In this document: positions 1,367 to 63,925 of the stretch, piece by piece
How the letters are laid out: every line of letters begins with the position of its first letter
Numbering within the stretch: the stretch's first letter is position 1
Origin: Octopus vulgaris
Taxonomy: Eukaryota
Length of the DNA: 64,000 bases
Direction: 5' to 3'
Assembly: GCA_951406725.2 (NCBI GenBank)
Contig: OX597836.1
Location: 2,852,001 to 2,916,000, forward strand
Notes under the pieces: generated by a model
The model's input: the letters and a program-made list of their open reading frames with translations, nothing else
What the model was told of the DNA's origin: nothing
Databases searched by the model: none
Position numbers and translations under genes: made by a program

Positions 1367-3051
1367 GTATGTTTGGTTAGATAAATATCGATATATATTA
1401 AGTATACATGCATATATGTATTGATTTGTTTGCTTATAATATATAAATGAATATGGGTATATAGAATTGTATATACATGGTATCTATCGACATATGCATG
1501 GATATACATATACACACACATATAAACGGTCATAGATTTTTAGGAACATAAACTCACATGCTGAAGGTGCTGCTGTATTAATTATAATTTCTCATAATTA
1601 ATTACATTCTATTTTTTTGTGTCTCCTTCAAAAGAGTTAGATCAAAGTCAAACTAAGTAAGAAAATGGACTCAGTTCCTGCTCATAGTCTTAGAATATTG
1701 CAACGGCAGAGTAAGATTGCTTGCATGGAATAATTTCATTTCTTGCCGAATGAAAATCTTTCATTGTCACGAAGATTTTATAGATTGCCATGTGTATACA
1801 ATAGACAATGTTCCAGATGTCTGATATACACTGAAGAGATTGGTTTTTACATCAACCCAGCTAAGAATGGTTTACGAGGGAAGTGAATTACTTTCCAGAG
1901 TTCTTAGTATGGAATTAACGAGTTATTATCTACCGACCATTATCATAGGCACTCGAATCCGTTCACAATATTTGATTCTAATCAACGCCGATCTTACTTT
2001 GTTCAGCATGGGCGATGACTATTCCTGGATTATAGTTTTCTTTCTCTTGAATAACTAAATCCCAAATAAAGAAGAGGTACGACACATGAAGATTAATGTG
2101 TCCACAAAAAAAAAGTAGCATTGTTTCCTCTCACCCGTATATAGATTTGGAGAAAAATATTTTTTTCAGTATACTTGTACCTTGAACAGTATAGACTTCT
2201 CTGATGTATTTCATCAGTGGATTCTTGGCTATTATTTCTAGCTCAGTGGGAGACTGTGACTGGTGACAAAGAAGGTTACGAATAAGTGATATTCCTCTTT
2301 TTTTTTTACTCTGAATTTTCTCCCAGCTTCTTTGCTTCCGCATTCTCCCGAATTACGTCATTAAAATCTTCAGAGAAGGTGATTGAACTTACTGGATAAT
2401 CAATTAATTAGTGCAAAGGGAGCCTGTAGAAACATTATGAATCCCACGTTCGTTAGATCAATCATTTCATTTTTATTCCATTTCATCAATAATTACACAC
2501 TTGCTTGACAATTGTCAGAATTTATCTTTAACCGTTTAAGGATGCGTTTCACCAAAATCTCAGATGCTGTGTATTAATAGTGTCAATTGTCATGGAGTTA
2601 AAGCTGCATACGATTCTGTTTTTATGGAATTAAATATATTGCAATCAAAGAATACAAATATAAAATGAAAAAATATGCATAAAATTAAAACAAATTAAAT
2701 ATATTTGAATGAATTTAAAATTTGAAATGAAGTCTCTCAAACCTCATTATTTAACGCTCTCTTCTTCAAATAGTTTAAAATAACTGTTCTCATTCAATAT
2801 CAATCTATACCTGCGTATCATCTGGCCAGATGCAGATATGCAGAAACAGTTCGAGTGAAGTTACAAAGTTCTTGGATGACTCATGTTTCGTGAAGCTCAG
2901 CTTTAACTCTGTATTGATTTCTAATCGGAAGCTATAAATTGATTTAGTTTTCGGATAGGGTTAGAAGAAGATATTTAGTACATCATACATACATATACAA
3001 TATATACATATATATTGTCACAAAAACATAATTCACATTCGGATGAACGTA

Positions 3052-3134
<83 letters not shown>

Positions 3135-3250
3135 ATATATATATATATATGTTTTATATATATATGTATGTATCTATCTATCTAATTATATATATAACTG
3201 TCTGTCTATCTTTCTATGTGTCTGTCTATCTTACTATCTAGCTATCTGTC

Positions 3251-3301
<51 letters not shown>

Positions 3302-3365
3302 CAGCTATACTAAACTGGCTTTTATGCCCATTTCCTTCATCCACCCATCTATTATTATTATTATT

Positions 3366-3403
<38 letters not shown>

Positions 3404-4099
3404 ATATACAGATAGATAGAGAGATACCTATGCAGTAATATCTATATTATTTATACCGCGCTATGTATATATATATATGTGTTTGTGTGTGTGTATGTGA
3501 GTGTGTGAGAGAGTGTGTGTGTGCGTGTGCGTGGGTGTACACAAATAAATTCATTTCATAAATATAAACATAAACGTAACGTACATACAACGATTTGTAT
3601 ACATACTTTTTTAGAGGATCATGTGTAGTAATTTATTGAATCGCGCTTATGTACTTGTTTGTATATCTAACCAGGTTGATGTGAGTCTCCACATTGTATG
3701 ATATAATTTATACACGATATCATAATATCACTTCCGGCTTTCTTTACAGCATGAAACAGGAAGTCTCTAGCATACAGTTCCAACACAATGTTAATTACGT
3801 GAGTATTTCTATGAAATCCATTCACACATGTTATTCAATAGTGTTCGAATAATTTGCGCTGTGACTTTCCCATTGAATTTAACTGCGGCTACATAGAATA
3901 TTGTGTGAGGCAAAGAGAGAGAGAGAGAGGAAAAGGAAGGAAGAAAGAAAGAAAGAGAGACAGAGAAAGAGGCGGTGTGATAAACAGTCAGACAGACAGA
4001 CAGACAGACAGTGAGAGTTTGTTCTTGAAGATGCCAGTTGCATGGAAGTAAAGTTTGTAGATTCAAGGTGATTTAGTACCACGTTATAGAATGTATGTG

Positions 4100-4265: not shown

Positions 4266-4627
4266 ATGTGTGAGTGTGTGTGTGTGTGGGGGGTTAAATA
4301 CATATTTTCAGATAGAGAGAGTGACATTGAGATATTGATAAATATATCGATACATAGCTAGACGTAGACTGACATACAGATTGAAAGATAGCGAGAGAGA
4401 AAGCGGGGTGGAAAGTAAAAGAGAGAGAGAGAGATGGGGGGGAAGAGAGAGAGAGGTGGCAGAAAGAGAGAAAAAGAAAGATTAAAATGTAAATATGAAC
4501 AGAAGCATAGTTAGAGAAACGTCAGGTAGTTAGATCTCTAGCTTGATAGACAGACAACTCATATTGAGGCGGTAAACATATTGTTGGAACCCTGAATGAA
4601 GATGTATCACCTATCTCACCCCGCCCC

Positions 4628-4905: not shown

Positions 4906-5079
4906 ATCAGAATGAATATTTAACATTCTACTATTTCATTTTATTTTATTCAATTATAATATATTATCTTATAATATATCATTATAAGATAAATAAAACG
5001 TGAAAATCAGACAAGGTTGGAATTCTTTTTATTAATATATTCTTCTATACACAATCACACACACCCATATATATATATA

Positions 5080-5114
<35 letters not shown>

Positions 5115-5122
5115 GGACTGAA

Positions 5123-5347
5123 GGCGGCGAGCTGGCAGAAACGTTAGAACGCCGGGCGAAATGCGTTGCCGTATTTCGTCTGCCATTACGTTCCGAGTTC
5201 AAATTCCGCCGAGGTCGACTTTGCCTTTCATCCTTCCGGGGTCGATAAATTAAGTACCAGTTACGCACTGGGGCGATGTAATCGACTTAATCCCTTTGTC
5301 TGTCCTTGTTTGACTCCTCTGTGTTTAGCCCCTTGTGGGTAGTAAAG

Positions 5348-5350
<3 letters not shown>
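5123..5350 (+). mobile_element. tRNA-derived SINE family A (Meta/MESC-like central domain), full length
   Basis: ggcggcgagctggcagaa head, gagttcaaattcc B box, gcctttcatccttccggggtcgataaattaagtacc central domain; ends in (TA)n. Near-identical to 23295 and 32483. Confidence 0.88.
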
Positions 5351-5406
<56 letters not shown>

Positions 5407-5568: not shown

Positions 5569-5932
5569 AAGAGAGATAGATAGATAGATAGATAGATGCA
5601 TAGATAGACAGATAGATAGATACATTTGAGACAGACTTAAGGTTTGGCTGCAGCACCTTGCAAGAGAATAAGTTCTCAGCTTTTGGTTTAGAATAGAGAA
5701 CCGCAGGTTTTGCATGTCCAACAAGATTCCAACTCAGGAAATAGTATCAGACTCTATGGAACGTATAAGAAAAGAACTGTGGACACGTTTAACTGAAAAA
5801 TTAAAAACGTATAACATCTGACAAAAGAATAATATGTACAGAACGAATACACAGAAAAAGAAATGTTGGAACTCATATAAAAGCCTTGCAACCATACACA
5901 AATACACATGTGCACGCATATATACATATATG

Positions 5933-6048
<116 letters not shown>

Positions 6049-6051
6049 TAT

Positions 6052-6092
<41 letters not shown>

Positions 6093-6093
6093 T

Positions 6094-6456
6094 AATAATA
6101 AATATTAGGGAATAAATCCAAATTTACAGGGAAAAAATCATTTTTAGGATTAAATCCAATTTTATAGTAAAATATTATAAAATATTATTAGAGACAAAAC
6201 CACTATTTTGCAAAACAAACAAAGAAAGACTTAATCAATACATAAAATTTTAATAAATAGTCAAAAAACCGCCACTACAATTGTTTCTTGTCTTGATCGA
6301 CAATCTTCAGGTGGACTTCCAATAAGTCAGTTTCAAATTATGTCGATCAAGACAAGAAACAATTGTAGTGGCTTTTTTGACTATTTATTAAAATTTTATG
6401 TATTGATTAAGTCTTTCTTTGTTTGTTTTGCAAAATAGTGGTTTTGTCTCTAATAA

Positions 6457-6459
<3 letters not shown>
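6094..6459 (-). mobile_element. Fold-back (palindromic) hammerhead element, family H1; putative PLE pLTR plus inverted pLTR
   Basis: Arms ~6185-6303 and 6341-6456 are reverse complements. The left arm has ~90 extra bp. Flanked by (TA)n on both sides; homologous to 58927-59376. Confidence 0.85.
6272..6314 (-). ncRNA. Minimal type-I hammerhead ribozyme, family H1
   Basis: Minus strand reads CCAC CTGAAGA TTGTC gatcaa GACAA GAAAC aatt GTA GTGG: perfect core, stems I and II, palindromic stem III ACAATTGT, GUA site. Confidence 0.9.
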
Positions 6460-6520
<61 letters not shown>

Positions 6521-11989: not shown

Positions 11990-14900
11990 TGTTTGTTGTG
12001 ACAGTATTAATTAAGGTAGTAGCGGTTTTTTCCCCCATTGATTTCTTGATTGTGGCGGCTCCTGTGATGTTATTAATGGTGGTGGTCTGTTCTCATTATA
12101 TATATTTTTCTGATCCGTATTGGTGGCCGTGTTTCGCTTATTTCCTTGCTTTCATTATTACATGTGGCGGTGCTGGCGGTGCTGGCGGGTGTCATGGTGG
12201 TTGTGCTTTTAGTAACGGCGGTATATACCACGTCACTATTTTATGCTGTTGTCGGCTGCTACTTGTGCGGATGATGGCGCTGTTTAAATTTGTACCATCT
12301 TCTAAACAATTATTTCGGCTGTTCTTATCCCTTGATTTAACCCCAGGTCATTCTTGACTTAGCCGAACTATGATCATCGCAAAACAATTAAACAAATGTA
12401 TTGTGGTAATCTTGAACATCAGCGGCTTTTTTTCTCCAGGTGGCCTCTAATACAATTCCGAATTACTTAGCTATTTTTTTTGTGAGAGTATAGAACGAGT
12501 GTCTGATGTTGATGAATGTTTGTTGCTGGCCCTGGGGGTCACATGACCAAACTAACTCTACACGGTTGCATCAGTTTGACATGAAGATAAAGTTGCTGTT
12601 GTTGTTGTTATTGCTGCTCCTGCTGTTTTTCGTGGTGGTGATGACGGTTTTCTTCATTGTCGAGGTGGTGGTGGTGGTGGTGGTGGTGGTTGTGCGGGTG
12701 CTGGTATTGCTGGAGCTGGTTGTGCTGGTGCTGATAGTGGTGGTTGCTACCTTTGTTGGTAATGATGTTGTTGTTAGTGGTGGTGGTGGTGGAGGTGGTG
12801 CGGCGATTGGGGGTGATTCCGTCTCTTTTATTAAGTCTAACTGTGATAGTTTTGGTAGTGTTGTTATTTTTTGTTTTTATTCTTTGTGGTGGGTGTGGCG
12901 GTGGTGGTGGTGGTGGTGGTGTGGTGGTGGTGGTGGTGGTGGTGGTGGTGGTGGTGGTGGTGTTGGATGCGGTGGCGATGGCATTTTGAAAACTGTCTTC
13001 TGCTCTAGCCTCTGGCCGACCAGATACCTCTATGTGGATTTGGTTGACGGAAAGTGAAAGAAGAACGCGTGTCTATGTGTGTGCGCACGCGTGTGTGTAT
13101 ACGTATGTGTGTAAATTTGTGTGTGTCTTTGTGCGTATATGTGTGTGCGTCTTTATATATGTGCGTGTGTGTGTCTTTGTGTCTTAGTTCATTCACTTCT
13201 TTATTCACCGAACTTGCTATGATTAAAGGCATTGTAACTCTCCCGTTCTGCCTGAGAGAACGATGGAATAAATAACAGGATTTATAGCCTAATAAGCATT
13301 GGAGTGGATTCATTGCCCTAAAATTCTTCAAGATGACGATCTAGTATGGCCGCAGTCTAATGCCTTGAACACGTAAATAAAGATAAAATGTCAATCATAC
13401 TCGAAAAAAGCAATAGTCAAATTATTTTCCAGGCTTAACCAACCCGTCATTTTGTAAGTGTGATTGGCCAAAGCCTGGTTCCTTGTTTAATAACTTAAAT
13501 TGCTTGAAAAAAAGGGTGTTTTGACTCCCATATGTATCAGTTCAAAGACTGCTTGGAAGCGCCATCATTAGTTCATAACAGTGCTATTAATGTTGTGGTT
13601 CTTTAACACCAAGTTACTTTTATTGAATGTGACTTAAGATTGTGTGCATTCTAGCTGTGAGCATCGTGTATTTTCCCTCCATATAAGACAATATTATATA
13701 ATGTATCTTTCTTTTGTAAAATACACAAGTAGTGTGCATAACCTAGGGACTGTGTTGGTGCACACACGATGGGGAGATCGTGTTTTCTATTCTTGCGGCA
13801 GGTAATTTTAAGTAAATCTCACATCGTTCTCCGATCTCTATCACACCTGACGTGTGGTACGCGGTGTACCTGTTCAGGTAAAATCGGTTTGATGAACGGA
13901 ATGAGTTAATCCACAGCGTATACATTCGATTACTAGAACCAAATCTCTTGTGCAGATTGTTTAACAAGAAAACGCCATGCCGTCATTCTCGGAATACAAG
14001 AGGCCACCTTCACTAAAAAATGTCTTGAATGTTATGTGGCTGGTATTTCTCGCAAGTCAAGCAACTGCATTGACTTTCCATCGCTCTTACATCAACTAGT
14101 TTTTGTTAATGTTGTTGAATTTGTTGGTGGTGGTCATGAAAGTGATATTAGTAGTGATAATTATGCCGGTGGACGTGGTGGCTACGGGTGGATTGGTAGG
14201 GATAGTTGTAGTAGAGTTTCTTATAGAAGTGGTCATGGCTTTGCTTATGTTTCTGATTGCAGTAAAGCAATGGCAGCTGCGGTAGTGCCGTTAATTGTTG
14301 AAGTTATGTTACTAGCGTTAAAGGTGGTGGTGGTAGTGCTGGTGGTGGTGATGGTGGTGGTGATCCTGGTGCTGGTGGTGATGGTGATGTGGTAGTGGTG
14401 GTGTTAGCGTTGGTGGTAGTAATAAGGGGTGTCTGTCATGGTGGTGTAAGTGGTAGAAGTAGTGATGTTGATGGTGAGGCCAAGGGTGTTTGTGATGGTG
14501 GATGTGTCGATGATGGGTTATAATAATGATAATATTCGAGACGGTGGTAGTGGTGATGGTGGTGGTGTTGGGATGATGATAATGGTAGTGTGGAGAAGGT
14601 GTTGATGGTAGCAATGATGTCGATGGTTACGATGGTAGCGATGATGGCGGTAGTCGTCATGGCGAATATGGTTTTGGCAGTCGTGATGTTGGTGTGGATG
14701 GTGATGATGGTGATGATGGTGATGATGGTGATGATGGTGTTAATGGTGTTGGCTGTCCTGGTGGTGGTGGTGTTAGTGGTGATGGTGGTGGCCATATTGG
14801 AATTCACGATACTTAGAGGTGGTTGTAGCGGCGGCGGTTCTGTGGTCGCAATAGGAATGTATCGTTTACAGGTGAGGGTGTAGACGTGTTTACGATGATT

Positions 14901-15500
14901 GCTATCATTGATATCAAGGTAGAACTCAGCCACAATAAAAACAAAAACAAAACAAAAAACAAATATAAAAAACATTAAAAAAAGAGGGAAGTTGATTGTC
15001 GATGACAAGTGAGAAAAATCGATAGAATCGAGTAACGCTAGGTGGCGTTAACAGCGGCAGAGACGGTGGAGTTTGCAATTGGCGGTGGTAGCTGTGGTAA
15101 TGGGGTGGTGGAGGTGGTTGTGGTGGTGGTGGTGATGGTGGTGGTGGTGGTGGAGGTGGTGGTAGTAGTGGTTGTGGTGGCGGTAGTGGTGGTAGTGGTG
15201 ATGGTGGTGGTGGTAGTGGTCGTCGTCGTCATAGTGGTGGTGGTGGTGGTGTCTGTGGCGGTGGCGGTCGTGGTGATAGTGGTGGTGGTGCTGGTGGTGC
15301 TGGTGGTGCTGGTGATGGAGGGGAGGTAGTGGTTGTGGTGGTGGTGTCTGTGGCGGTGGCGGTCGTGGTGATAGAGGTGGTGGCGATGGTGGTGGTGATA
15401 TTAGTGCCGGTGGGGGTGTTGCCGCTTATGACACTGGTGGTGTTGGGCCGAATGGCTGCTGCGGTATGGATGACGGTGATGGTCCTGTAATGATTTGTAT
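11990..15500 (+). repeat. G/T-skewed low-complexity region rich in (GGT)n/(GAT)n
   Basis: Long GGT/GTG/GAT runs at 12660-12960, 14320-14790 and 15100-15420. Exact 39-bp direct repeat at 15241-15279 and 15336-15374. Confidence 0.85.
12990..13388 (+). mobile_element. SINE family B, old degraded copy
   Basis: tagcctctggccgacc...ggatttggttgacggaaag, a TG tract, and tail agtatggccgcagtctaatg. Confidence 0.65.
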
Positions 15501-15852
15501 TCGTTTCGTTTATTTTGCACGAAATTATACGTTGTTTATTTTTCATAAAATGCTGTGGTTCTTCATTTTTTTTGGTCGTCGTTATTGTTATTATTTTTGC
15601 TGTTGTTGTTGTTGCGCATGTGTTTGAATAATGTTTGATGATACACCGATGTTTTGTTTGTTATTGTTTTTTGTTATTGTTATTTTTGCGTGATGCTGGT
15701 GTCGTAATGCTGTTTGGTTTCCTTGTTTTTTGTATTTGTTTATTCAAGTCGATTTACATGTTATGCTTCTTCTTGTTGTTACATTTCGTTTTTACACATG
15801 GCCACAGTTAATTGATTATGCAGTAGTTAGGCTCTCGTCGCAAATGAAGGAT

Positions 15853-15937
15853 TCATCATCATCGTGGTTGCCATCATCATCATCACCATCATCATCGCCA
15901 CCACCACCATCATCATCATCATCATCATCAGTCGTCG

Positions 15938-16016
<79 letters not shown>

Positions 16017-16057
16017 TATTATCATCACCATCATCATCACCACCACCGTCATCATCA
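15853..16057. repeat. (CAT)n/(CAC)n microsatellite
   Basis: Directly visible. Confidence 0.95.
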
Positions 16058-16089
16058 GAAGCAGCAGCAGATAGAGGCCCATGTAGGTG

Positions 16090-16345
16090 ATGGTCTAGGG
16101 CTTAGGGGCGGGAGACGCCAGATCTTGGGGAAAAAAATAACATTGGTCGTCTTGTTATAGTCGAAGGCTCTTCGTTGACGCCCGACACCACTGGGATGTG
16201 GCCCTCGAAGTCGCTGGAAATGTAGATCTCCAGGTCCAAATTATTGTCCCTCTTGTTGCTCCTCGGATCTGGGAAAAGTGGACTTCCGCTCCCAACCTGC
16301 CAGACGTCTCCCAACCCACAGAGCGGACGCAGTGAAATCACCCAT
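16090..16345 (-). pseudogene. Possible decayed L1/Tx1-like LINE AP-endonuclease fragment
   Basis: GC-rich island. Minus ORF ISLRPLCGL...NLDLEIYISSDFEGHIPVVSGVN resembles the SLNVRGL and D-x-EGR-x-VVLDV motifs; weak. Confidence 0.35.
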
Positions 16346-16961
16346 ACCCGTCTTGTTGCTTAGCAACAACAACAAAAATCATCAGCAGCAGTAGGAGGGT
16401 CAGGGTCGGCGAAAGTGATGGACACATCGAATTTTACAAGTGACACTTTCGATGGGTATGTACAGGGGTGCTGTCTCCAAGCGAATTTATTGAAGGGTTA
16501 GTGAAACTGATATAAATTGCTACAATGAATGGTACCACACTACGTATTGACCTCAGAAGAGAAATTGCAGGGGCTCTTATCCTCCCTAGCGATCATCTCT
16601 CTTGTTCAGAGACATACCATATGGTGGGGTACTTCTAATAGTCCTAGAGATTCTCTTGTAACACGGAGTTCATATCGTTTTCACGTTTTTTAATGATATT
16701 ATGTTAACGGCTTTGTTGTTACTCTACAACGTGTATACCATTTATAATTTTTATAAATCATATTATTCTATGTAAAACGCAACACTGTTCTCCTCATCGT
16801 TCCCTTGCGGCAAAGCATAGGTATCATCATCCCCATCATCATCGTTATTATCATCGTTAATATTACTATTGTTATTATTATTATGTTTTTTCCTTCTTTC
16901 TTCATATTTTCTTCCGTTTCCCGCCGAGTGTTTTCCATACACCTAGGAAGATAAGAAGGGC

Positions 16962-16962
16962 A

Positions 16963-17055
<93 letters not shown>

Positions 17056-17185
17056 TAATTAATATTATTATTATTATTATTATTTTTATTTTTATTATTA
17101 CTATTACTATTACTATTATTATTATTATTATTATTATTACTATTACTATTACTATTACTATTATTATTATCATTATTGTCATTGC

Positions 17186-17260
<75 letters not shown>

Positions 17261-17264
17261 TATT
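16962..17264. repeat. (ATT)n microsatellite
   Basis: Directly visible. Confidence 0.95.
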
Positions 17265-17302
17265 GCAGCGGTGCGCTGGCAGTATTCTTTACACGCCAGT
17301 GT

Positions 17303-17712
17303 CAATGCTTTGCGACATTTCTGCCGGTTTTACGTTCTGAGATCCAACTCTGCAGTCGTCGACTTTGCTTATTTCGGGTCGATGGAATAAGTCCCAGCTG
17401 AGTACTTGAGTCAATGCTGTCCATTAACTTCCTCTCCAACAATTTCAGGCTTTGTCCTTCTCGTATTCTGTGACTTAGGTGTCGGTGTGGGATTATGGAC
17501 GTTGTTGCATGCGGTGGGGGTGATATAATTGTGTGGAGTGGTGTTGGTGATGGTTTGGTGGTGCTTTTATCGGTGCTGGTTTTGCTAGACGAAGTTGTGG
17601 AGATTGAAATGGTGTTACATTTCGATTTTTGTTGCTGATGAGGTTGAGGGCGTTGTTGTATGGTGAGTTTGTTGAGCTTGGTGGTTGTGATGTGTTGCAG
17701 GTTGTTGTCTAG
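17303..17712 (+). repeat. ~410-bp direct duplication, copy 1 (degraded SINE A plus GT-rich flank)
   Basis: Colinear with 20813-21226, e.g. gcgacatttctgccggttttacgttctga and gaagttgtggagattgaaatggt. Confidence 0.85.
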
Positions 17713-58379: not shown

Positions 58380-58560
58380 GCAGATAAAATGTTTAGCGGC
58401 ATTTCGTTGGTCTGTATGTTCTGATTCAATGCTGCCGAGATCGACTTTGCCTTACATCCTTTTGAAATCGATAATATATGTAACGTTTGAATAATAGGAT
58501 CAATATAATCGAATTAAGCTCTCCCATAAAATTGATAACCTTGTGACAAAATTTGAAAGC
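58380..58560 (+). mobile_element. SINE family A, degraded
   Basis: gccgagatcgactttgccttacatccttttgaaatcgataa. Confidence 0.7.
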
Positions 58561-58804
58561 ATTAAAACTTTATATTCTTTTATTCATTTATTTGTTTCAG
58601 CCATTTGACTGCAGCCATGCTGGAGAACCGCATTCAGTCGAACAAATCGACACCAGGAATTATTTTTTGTAAGCCTAGTACTTATTGTATCGGGTGTTTT
58701 GCTGAACCGCTGAGTTATGTGGACGTAAGCACGCCAACATCGGTTGTCAAACGATGGTGGCAGGACAAACACAGACACACAAACATATACAAACACATCT
58801 ATAT

Positions 58805-58855: not shown

Positions 58856-58941
<86 letters not shown>

Positions 58942-59120
58942 AATAAACATTAGGGAATAAAACCAAAATTACAGGGAAAAAAATCAGATTTAGGATGAAA
59001 TCCAATTTTATAGTAAAATATTATATAATATTAATTCGAGACAAAACCACTATTTTGCAAATCAAACAAGGAAAGACTTAATCAATACATAAAAAATTTT
59101 AATATAAAGTAAATAAATCG

Positions 59121-59164
59121 CCACTACAATTGTTTCATGTCTTCAAATGACATTCATCAGGTGG
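59121..59164 (-). ncRNA. Minimal type-I hammerhead ribozyme, H1 (minus copy)
   Basis: CCAC CTGATGA ATGTC atttgaa GACAT GAAAC aatt GTA GTGG. Confidence 0.9.
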
Positions 59165-59239
59165 ATTTCCGATCATCTAGTCAGTTTTAATTTATGAATT
59201 AAAACTTCATAAATTAAAACTGACTAGAAGATCGGAAAT

Positions 59240-59283
59240 CCACCTGATGAATGTCATTTGAAGACATGAAACAATTGTAGTGG
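59240..59283 (+). ncRNA. Minimal type-I hammerhead ribozyme, H1 (plus copy)
   Basis: Same motif on the plus strand; predicted cleavage after GUA at 59279. Confidence 0.9.
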
Positions 59284-59369
59284 CGATTTATTTACTTTAT
59301 ATTAAAATTTTTTATGTATTGATTAAGTCTTTCCTTGTTTGATTTGCAAAATAGTGGTTTTGTCTCGAA

Positions 59370-59434
<65 letters not shown>

Positions 59435-60385
59435 GAAGGGATTCTTTCACACACCGTCGACCAAATCCACTCACAAAGCATTGGTCGGCCCGAGGGTATA
59501 GTAGAAAACACTTGCCCAAGGTGCCACACCGTGGGACTGAACCCGCAACCATATGCAGTGAGATTGATTCAGCAATCGTGTGTGCTAGAAGCAAAGTTCT
59601 TTTCATGCATCTACTGCTGCGCCTGCACTTCATACTTTCCACCATCGTAACTCTTCAAACATTGTACAGCTAAACCGAAAACTCTTGTACACTCGAAAAA
59701 AAACCCTACTTGTTATATTGTAGAACCGTACATCATTAACCCCAATATATTCGCATCGCTGAAAGCGCAGCTGAGACGACTTTTATATGAGCACAAACAC
59801 ATGAGACACAATGTATCCGGGATTACATGCTATGTTTTTTTTAATAATAATAATAATGTTTGTGTATGCAAATGGTTACTGCTTGCATTATTCGGTGCGA
59901 AGATTAGATGAATTTAGATTTATTTTATTTTATTAACTTCTGTATCTAGTAAATAAATAGTAATTGGAACTTAAATTCAAAGTATGCTTTAATCCCCTAG
60001 CTTTATCAACCGTAGGAGTACTCCCTATGTACACACAACATGTGGAAAACTGTTTATATTGCATATGTGAGATGCACTGATCGGAATATGATACAGTTTA
60101 CGAATGCCTCGCGGACTTGCTGCGTTAACAACTGTACTACGTCGCAGATATAGCATGTATTTAAAAAGACTTACTTCCTCCTTTGATAAGACGGATACAG
60201 CTTTCAAATCGGAGTAACATATCTCATGTAAATTGAAATTCATTATAAATATTAATCTTACTTTCAAAGGTATTTTGCTTCCAAATCCATATAAGGGATT
60301 AATTTCTTTTATCTCTGTTTTAGGATACTGAGCTCTGTGCACCGTCTATAATACATAATCATGTATAGAAAGACACATTAAGGAT

Positions 60386-63584: not shown

Positions 63585-63702
63585 GTCATCAACGTGACCG
63601 ACCAGGCTATCAGATGTTGCTACACATCGCTGGTCACAATGCACTTCGCATTGTTTTAGCCTTCAAATGACGCCACCCCTCTGGCTAAGTGAGCAGGCCA
63701 AT
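63585..63702 (+). mobile_element. Short GC-balanced island in (TA)n, probable retroelement 3' tail
   Basis: Non-repetitive 120-bp insert between (TA)n tracts. The assignment is from recall of octopus repeats only. Confidence 0.3.
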
Positions 63703-63726
63703 ATATATTTATATATACATATATAT

Positions 63727-63925
63727 AGGGAGAGTTTACGAAAAAAACAAAAGACAAAGACAGGTGGTGTACAAAACAAACAGATGTATTAGTATAATGC
63801 TCAGGAATAGAAAAAGTATTTTACGTTTCGAGCCTACGCTCTTCTACAGAAAGGGACACAGAGAAAAAGAAGGAGAGAAACAAGGAGAGAAAAAAGAGAG
63901 AAAGAAGGAGAGAAAAATATGAGTC
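63727..63925 (-). mobile_element. H2 repeat
   Basis: Near-identical to the reverse complement of 28500-28668; ends ctccc-(TA)n. Confidence 0.8.
63818..63853 (-). ncRNA. Minimal hammerhead motif, H2 (A6U)
   Basis: CTTT CTGTAGA A GAGC gtag GCTC GAAAC GTA AAAT. Confidence 0.7.

Follow-up and report, generated by a model that had tools for sequence, protein, structure and literature searches.

The window analysed here is a 64,000-nt stretch of the Octopus vulgaris genome (GenBank assembly GCA_951406725.2, contig OX597836.1, positions 2,852,001 to 2,916,000 of the forward strand) that contains two fold-back copies of a short hammerhead-bearing sequence, both sitting in (TA)n, as well as a micro-stub that constitutes a third insertion of the same family, whose members we term stubs (Table 1). 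Copies 1 and 2 are 86% identical across 258 nt and have unequal arms, the left arm being ~82 nt longer at its outer end in both cases. On the minus strand, copy 1 reads from 6314 to 6272 CCAC CTGAAGA TTGTC GATCAA GACAA GAAAC AATT GTA GTGG, with the GUA at 6276-6278 as placed by an earlier sequence-only reading of this locus. Each arm of copy 2 carries a complete hammerhead, reading CCAC CTGATGA ATGTC ATTTGAA GACAT GAAAC AATT GTA GTGG (59164-59121 on the minus strand, 59240-59283 on the plus strand). The same reading had correctly stated that the hammerheads of the two copies, compared from CCAC to GTGG, differ only at N7, at stem II's first position on both sides and in loop II, and that the second ribozyme of copy 1 starts at 6341 and lacks CUGAAGA: the plus arm does begin there, within stem II, and shares 2 nt (TG/CA) with the minus arm. 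Target-site duplications were not discernible in the (TA)n flanks of the copies, ARAGORN detected no tRNA, and a repeat search of the window was dominated by microsatellites. Elsewhere in the window, dispersed repeats at 58560-58790, 59430-59560, 28504-28712, 63701-63895, 5067-5362 and 32342-32711 also flank many loci of the stub family, and a long trinucleotide-repeat run with strong GC and AT skew, without a convincing ORF, occupies 12000-17500.

Table 1. Features of the window, numbered from the first nucleotide of the 64,000-nt stretch.
Feature	Position	Strand	Description
(TA)n target microsatellite, left flank	5920..6093	.	From sequence
Copy 1 long arm	6094..6342	-	PLE 5' UTR lacking the intron; spans leader position 5 through the long (tail) end
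Copy 1 tail, ~82 nt	6094..6175	-	Long arm only; between two putative reverse-transcription start sites
Copy 1 minimal type I hammerhead	6272..6314	-	From sequence; predicted cut between 6276 and 6275
Stem III palindrome ACAATTGT	6277..6284	.	Predicted dimer interface; palindromic or wobble-compatible in 26/28 variants
Copy 1 exon 1 remnant, 19/23 nt	6324..6342	-	Junction 6324/6323, CTGACTT/ATTGG
Copy 1 short inverted arm	6341..6459	+	From within stem II to the short site; 2-nt microhomology; self-alignment
(TA)n target microsatellite, right flank	6460..6520	.	From sequence
Micro-stub of the same PLE family, ~21 nt	41254..41274	-	Short end only, in (TA)n; BLAST E 1e-6
Copy 2 long arm, subfamily 2	58935..59198	-	Hammerhead 59121-59164
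Copy 2 long-arm exon 1	59174-59198	-	Junction 59174/59173; genomic donor TAGAAG/GTA in L321, L322
Copy 2 central filler, 5 nt	59199..59203	.	Matches leader-internal sequence; possibly templated
Copy 2 short arm	59204..59376	+	Hammerhead 59240-59283
Copy 2 short-arm exon 1, complete 27 nt	59204-59230	+	Junction 59230/59231

The origin of this sequence became apparent from 14 sampled copies that extend upstream for more than 1 kb into other sequence ending in AG right before the hammerhead, and from one chimeric arm that yielded a GIY-YIG fragment. Searching with this fragment returned 151 matches, many of them in open frames of 820-860 aa, which belong to a Penelope-like element (PLE) of ~6-7 kb. 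In the parent copy L199, an initiator-like TTTC/ACTTC lies at 2886, exon 1 runs to 2912 and is followed by a 1,125-nt intron (2913-4037), the hammerhead core lies at 4051, the sites corresponding to the short and long ends of the stubs lie at ~4185 and ~4266, and the ATG is found at 4325. The general parental layout is an exon 1 of 23-27 nt, a GT-AG intron, an exon 2 carrying the hammerhead, the short end and the long end, and ~60 nt further on the ATG. BLAST alignments of the parent against the window stop at 6323 in copy 1 and at 59174 in copy 2, the long arm of copy 1 is identical to exon 2 of the ORF-linked copy L192 at 227 of 230 aligned bases, and the junction of copy 1 corresponds in parent copies to a donor CTGACTT/GTAAGT with an AG acceptor ~1.1 kb or more downstream. 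The stubs are the parental 5' UTR from which the ~1.1-kb intron has been precisely removed. This point was missed by the sequence-only reading: the fold-back is not a ribozyme element in its own right but the spliced 5' UTR of an autonomous PLE.

The parent ORF of 840 aa comprises an RT plus a GIY-YIG endonuclease at its C-terminal end, with YRDD and VVYKC...YIG present, DKT at 128, a CxCX5C linker (CTCRDKSNC) at 691, CYLC at 797 and CRH near 826, and is devoid of CCHH and of GxKF/Y. The DKT in place of DKG, the CxCX5C linker, the lack of CCHH and of GxKF/Y, and CxxC and CxH motifs flanking E and N are features described for the Hydra clade (PMC8557442). By these motifs and by alignment by eye to the clade blocks, we assign the predicted protein to a Hydra-clade EN+ PLE. 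At position 41 it has RIKWK where the profile of 23 relatives has RWK. Pfam returned no match on the parent ORF, a PDB sequence search likewise did not identify it, and Pfam RVT_1 and GIY-YIG each match only one of the 23 aligned relatives; the profile of these relatives nevertheless matched a Pfam-positive PLE RT with a probability of 88% (E 2.8e-6). Named homologues of the protein come from Argonauta and Octopus. A hammerhead was detected upstream in 7 of 14 ORF loci and downstream in 32 of 38, the pLTR being present on both sides in partial tandems.

Several further observations were made on parent copies and their neighbours. In L192 (4410-6929), the RT and the endonuclease are separated by an insert rich in Asn (40% N) at residues 491-620; such inserts have been described in Adineta PLEs (PMC3846280). 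L269, L270, L278, L284, L285 and L290 carry two tandem leader-intron units spaced by ~1.2 kb, as do many parent copies. At L152 (2208-2700), one arm fuses endonuclease coding sequence to the intron end, a template jump that is absent from the other arm. Other PLE families lie directly beside copies at L157 (392-4097), L152 and L160, namely an RT and GIY-YIG ORF with a CxxxxCxxC-type linker and a second Hydra-like ORF, and they probably share the (TA)n targets. The different-linker ORFs beside L152 and L157 were considered as partners and rejected, their tail-to-tail orientation indicating separate insertions.

We then determined the size and architecture of the family in the genome (2.8 Gb, 227 contigs). 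Exact matches to a 28-mer taken from the long end number 2,843, against none for its reversed control, so that the family counts at least 2,843 copies. First-look candidates numbered 960 and 2,525 in two DNA searches; among the 40 scored in each, long arms were 97-100% and 93-100% identical, respectively. Architecture was examined in a tail-anchored sample that was not selected by the ribozyme: 90 loci, corresponding to 91 of the first 100 listed 28-mer places (one previously fetched place and the last eight being omitted), from which L070 was dropped as a segmental duplicate to leave 89 copies. L069 and L070 (G000:C1:8.39 and 8.77 Mb) share at least 9.8 kb at 99.5% identity and lie 373 kb apart, reflecting a segmental duplication or an assembly artefact. 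A TA-type repeat directly follows the long end in all 89 copies. An inverted arm was present within 620 nt in 60 of them, the remaining 29 including long unspliced copies. Of the 60 inverted arms, 57 stopped 75-87 nt before the long end, two extended to the long end and one terminated elsewhere. Similarly, 61 of 63 head-to-head pairs combine one long and one short end (two rows of that set join separate insertions). The two outer ends are thus fixed sites ~81 nt apart. By contrast to these ends, the inner breakpoints of the 60 copies scatter from -75 to +159 (long arm) and from -73 to +102 (short arm) relative to the predicted cut site. Since the outer ends are fixed and the centres variable, each fold-back originates with its own insertion, which rules out that the unit is a MITE; this breakpoint tabulation also upholds the earlier proposal that the two fold-backs of the window formed independently.

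Breakpoints cluster between +5 and +27 past the cut site, an excess that could reflect some cleaved templates and is confounded by AT-rich microhomology. The junctions show short hairpin-like microhomologies, and some central junctions recur (e.g. five identical ones among 30 loci), so that stubs may be re-amplified; the same central junction is also found on different hammerhead haplotypes. Two unusual loci were encountered. L339-L350 (G000:C9:50,396,555-50,399,368) consists of twelve 250-nt head-to-tail units of pLTR end plus the first 28 codons, without hammerhead, three in one orientation and nine in the other; they share one novel junction, end at the short and long sites, and look like the product of both primers copying one small circular template. 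L306 (600-1060) is a spliced stub with leader and hammerhead present three times at 107-109 nt spacing, which could represent a retrozyme-like array in the making; among the inspected loci, head-to-tail hammerhead units were found only in this short triplet.

The removal of the intron was then followed across the family. In 129 arms, a complete leader is fused directly to exon 2. For each of the junction types CTT, CTTGTAA, CTTGAAA, TTTGAAA, TTAGAAG and TAT, a corresponding genomic donor exists with GT directly after it, two of these donors being only 4 nt apart in one parent type; the rare variant TTT has no matching GT. In L208 and L307, a second, upstream intron has been removed as well, and alternative acceptors are used. 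In the 89-copy sample, the long arm is spliced in 22 cases, unspliced in 14, truncated before the junction in 49 and unclear in four, of which three look spliced by eye. The first 100 arms of a position-ordered list divide into 49 spliced and 51 unspliced; because the pattern behind this list fits arms in both states, its 1,082 total matches, of which only these 100 were classified, are no count of spliced copies. A pattern for the unspliced acceptor matches 386 arms genome-wide.

Most spliced arms stop at the initiator or just inside it. Within the range common to two of the searches, the upstream TTC was counted by eye in 4 of 39 complete-leader arms, at three loci, in one case supplied by the inverted arm. 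Spliced copies also extend ~25-40 nt beyond the initiator in L212 and L213, and ~280 nt or more in L305, indicating that splicing is not strictly tied to a cap-proximal exon. For the base preceding the leader, 16 TA-flank matches were reduced to 12 solo copies by removing two presumed duplicates on C29 and two fold-back junctions; these have G in five, T in three, A in two and C in two, the parent having C. An extra G is expected when the cap is copied, and this small count fits cap copying.

The outcome was different for copies linked to the ORF. Downstream pLTRs were sought within 6.5 kb past 40 endonuclease matches (29 of the top 30, the chimeric one being left aside, plus 11 others), 38 of which could be oriented; a hammerhead was detectable in 32 of these downstream pLTRs, and all 32 retain the intron, as read from its acceptor. 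For upstream pLTRs, the tail-to-ORF junction gave 35 matches; 30 were fetched, 12 of them forming one tandem array, which left 18 independent loci, with 12 unspliced, five truncated and one spliced. This single spliced match ends ~35 nt past the tail and does not contain the ORF. All 44 informative ORF-linked pLTRs (32 downstream and 12 upstream) therefore keep the intron. Among contigs of four contig-only sequence runs presumed to be RNA, one joins leader to exon 2 and could derive from a genomic stub; a comparison of exon 2 and the ORF start in these contigs gave no leader-to-ORF link. The significance of intron retention was called unknown in PMC8557442, and in PMC2377424 most Penelope transcripts were spliced and selection against intron-less copies was suggested. 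Intron-less ORF copies might indeed be made and then lost by selection, although dead ones should stay visible.

By sequence, the hammerhead of the stubs is of the minimal type I, with a CUGANGA, GAAA and NUH core, stems I and II and a palindromic stem III. A motif search requiring an intact core returned 263 hammerheads in 64 variants, and core invariance is for that reason not evidence. The alignment comprised 28 variants, 19 seen at least twice and nine singletons of diverged subfamilies. Stem I and four stem II pairs are invariant in it and 94.8% of the cells are paired; N7 is C, not U, in most subfamily-2 copies. In stem III, the inner pair is A-U for 18 of the 28 variants, G-C for six and G-U for four, AAUU having become GAUC with the palindrome kept, probably in a single event, and 3-4 of 500 shuffles reach two of the covariation measures, a comparison that does not control for the relatedness of the variants. 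At the G10.1-C11.1 closing pair, G-C occurs in 0 of 28, the position being U-A, A-U or mismatched. The stem II pair that the sequence-only reading had called compensatory is a standard pair in 11 of the 28 variants and unpaired in 17, and is thus a freely varying position; covariation is better supported for the stem III palindrome. Rfam at the gathering threshold found no match. Stems I and II of copy 1 are present in the centroid fold, and the hammerhead folds with an energy no different from that of shuffles (z -0.10 to 0.32), so that it is evidence neither way.

Private substitutions in the stubs are no rarer in core and stems than downstream: in a set of 112 arms they number 6/3341 versus 14/7018 (P 1.0), and in a set of 76 arms 25/2247 versus 34/4811 (P 0.09), many of the loci having been found with ribozyme-containing queries. 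Stubs show no selection on the ribozyme: the motif is conserved in the parent lineage and passively carried by the stubs. The conservation behind the earlier claim of a selected ribozyme belongs to the parent PLE lineage, and the claim fails for the stubs, whose private changes are not depleted in it. Most stub templates also appear to have been uncleaved, judging from arms crossing the site as a genomic proxy. Of 71 arms that keep the first bases past the cut, 63 cross the whole GAAAC...GUA and one starts exactly at the cut, the others being one false match and six arms that break or differ within 7 nt upstream of it; we looked for 5' ends clustering sharply at the cut site and saw no such cluster. 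L325 is a single case, just upstream of a tail, of an ORF-bearing copy whose 5' end lies within 1 nt of the cut site. If a fold-back were transcribed by read-through, its arms would likely base-pair with each other. Minimal PLE hammerheads have been described as cutting poorly as monomers or needing protein (PMC4209133, PMC11167929), and absence of in vitro cleavage would consequently not refute the ribozyme.

Whether the two arms of an insertion share a common origin was assessed from their splicing state. Head-to-head pairs in the position-ordered list comprise nine spliced/spliced, 13 intron/intron and no mixed pairs among 22, whereas shuffled pairs contain on average 10.9 mixed ones and reached zero in none of 200,000 trials. 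A biased pair set gave the same picture, with 39 spliced/spliced, seven intron/intron and no mixed pairs (46 classified of 63). This concordance indicates that a single RNA, or a single class of RNA, is usually the source of both arms.

The best explanation, to which we assign a probability of about 0.8, is that a stub consists of two head-to-head copies of the PLE 5' UTR, without intron or ORF, generated when both cut ends of the (TA)n target prime on spliced mRNA. Transcription would start at the initiator and give a capped and spliced RNA; the PLE protein would cut both strands of (TA)n, and synthesis would be primed from each DNA 3' end at one or the other of two positions, which are separated by 81 nt and precede the AUG, in most cases with a single uncleaved RNA as the shared template. 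Both cDNAs would extend toward the cap and then join by microhomology. With priming upstream of the AUG, a spliced mRNA can yield only ~250 nt and no ORF. ORF-bearing copies would require a longer RNA, reaching through the ORF into the downstream pLTR, and such templates would be unspliced; the hammerhead would be a passenger of the stub. An anole PLE protein has been reported to cut and extend both strands in vitro, with two internal starts and use of uncleaved RNA (PMC11167929). We lean slightly towards a more detailed version of this scheme, in which capped, spliced mRNA is reverse-transcribed about as often as unspliced RNA but is made into ORF-less palindromic stubs by two-site priming within the 5' UTR, the ORF being carried by unspliced read-through RNA only and intron retention not being an avoidance of splicing. 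One RNA would be copied twice by a dimeric enzyme with one start site per strand, giving the inverted pLTR and the one-sided tail in one step, and the covarying hammerhead palindrome may pair RNAs in the particle instead of acting chiefly in cleavage.

Arm concordance does not by itself favour priming by both cut ends, for it is equally expected from snap-back copying and from two RNAs of one source locus. Snap-back, in which a single priming on a spliced template gives a first cDNA that folds back and copies itself before later deletions skew the centre, is the strongest competitor of two-ended priming, although we regard it as improbable. Self-priming has been proposed in PMC3846280, the hairpin-like microhomologies at the junctions suit it, and the arms of a pair share variants, differing by a mean of 1.25 substitutions versus 2.49 for the median arm of the same subfamily. 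However, the short arm lacks the tail and cannot have templated the long one, and either arm can be the longer at its 5' side (by more than 10 nt the short arm in 18 of 60 and the long arm in 15 of 60, by eye), an argument that later deletions at palindrome centres could blur. ORF-bearing arms likewise end at either site (17 short and 13 long, with two of the 32 unassigned by eye), and at C4:22.48 Mb a short-ended arm of 6.2 kb with the ORF faces a long-ended arm of 3.6 kb, in which 2.6 kb of it are absent. Furthermore, the two arms of L005 have different junctions, the only such case among 39 spliced pairs, which requires two RNAs or two isoforms.

A second possibility, close to the sequence-only reading and in our judgement still less probable than snap-back, is that stubs form a self-sustaining non-autonomous element of SINE- or retrozyme-like nature, copied from stubs and endowed with its own selected ribozyme. 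High copy number and recurring junctions would be in line with this proposal, and non-autonomous PLE derivatives are known (PMC8557442; bioRxiv 10.64898/2026.07.22.740005). Yet each stub junction and hammerhead haplotype has an intron-bearing parental match, copy 1 of the window is nearly identical to an ORF-linked pLTR, the recurring central junction occurs on different haplotypes, private changes spare the stub ribozyme no more than its surroundings, and the copies are inverted pairs or singles rather than tandem arrays, with starts that do not fall at the cut site. The hypothesis of PMC3846280, by which antisense RNA primes itself to give head-to-head repeats with their introns kept, predicts the observed layout and could still hold for intron-bearing copies. 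It is contradicted for stubs by exact sense-spliced copies, as an antisense RNA is not spliced at sense GT-AG sites and 49 of the first 100 listed arms are sense-spliced; spliced and unspliced insertions moreover have one architecture and one pair of outer ends in common, and we give this hypothesis very little credence. Finally, a MITE or foldback DNA transposon moving as a unit would account for an inverted repeat with fixed outer ends, but is practically dismissed by the widely varying inner breakpoints, the 81-nt difference between outer ends, the 29 of 89 copies without a nearby inverted arm and a sequence that is intron-less relative to an RT-encoding parent.

Hundreds of precisely spliced copies in the genome show sense, spliced RNA to be a normal template, and the copying of stubs from it would likely explain why PLEs appear never to lose introns. 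The split between spliced stubs and unspliced ORF copies, the concordant arms and the two fixed ends make the model testable in the existing in vitro PLE assay, and, considered together, stubs, intron retention and arm concordance open both the intron and the inversion puzzles of PLEs to experiment. Such stubs are also easily mistaken for MITEs or for selected ribozyme elements.

In L1 twin priming, two primers also act on one RNA to give an inversion with a microhomology junction, as in the stubs, but the two L1 cDNAs cover adjacent, non-overlapping parts of the RNA, whereas stub cDNAs cover the same stretch and produce a palindrome. The parent resembles the Hydra-clade PLEs of PMC8557442 in its DKT, CxCX5C linker, absence of CCHH, CxxC/CxH motifs, (TA)n target and hammerhead; it differs from them in length (~6-7 kb versus <3 kb), in its 1.1-kb and sometimes duplicated 5' UTR intron, in the Asn-rich insert and in having RIKWK rather than RWK. 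A Hydra family from Octopus bimaculoides, Hydra-1_Obim, is already reported there; compared by eye, the parent belongs to a different family, with a differing protein and hammerhead, and three short motifs of its ORF are absent from the supplement text of that paper. Inverted pLTR and tail insertions (Pen2a_Av, PMC3846280; PMC8557442, Fig. 2 legend) have in common with the stubs a head-to-head inverted partial copy, a tail at one end, an Inr-like TCACT and solo pLTRs. Stubs are distinguished from them by a tail of 81 nt instead of 30-40, by the inverted pair making up the whole insertion and by being spliced; solo pLTRs have been ascribed to recombination or deletion in this literature (PMC3846280, PMC8557442). 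PAc Poseidon (PMC11167929) shares two internal start sites that define a tail, an AT-rich target, cutting and extension of both strands and the use of uncleaved RNA, but its start sites lie 111-118 nt inside the ORF, whereas both putative stub sites are upstream of the AUG; in the main text covered here, that study addresses neither inverted arms nor splicing.

Minimal type I hammerheads of metazoan PLEs (PMC4209133) likewise have an intact core, a 4-bp stem I, a palindromic stem III and a position just after the intron end, and opposite-strand pairs 100-700 bp apart were noted in Schistosoma in the same work. The stub hammerhead departs from this type in lacking G10.1-C11.1 and in having a stem II of four invariant pairs with a variable first position. 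Non-LTR retrozymes (PMC7229834; bioRxiv 10.64898/2026.07.22.740005) are similarly ORF-less, PLE-related units of 150-400 nt with a type I hammerhead, but they form head-to-tail arrays and pass through a circular RNA stage, whereas stubs occur singly or as inverted pairs and seem to be newly produced from parent mRNA each time. The covered part of PMC13282606 makes no mention of hammerhead, palindrome or foldback, and in the literature within our scope, which took in few subscription papers, we came across neither spliced genomic PLE copies nor twin priming in PLEs. Hammerheads in pLTRs, opposite-strand pairs, inverted pLTRs, tails and (TA)n targeting were all known already (PMC4209133, PMC8557442, PMC3846280). 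We conclude that the hammerhead is a known PLE feature, and that the value of this family lies in its stubs being spliced, its ORF copies strictly keeping the intron and its paired arms being concordant.
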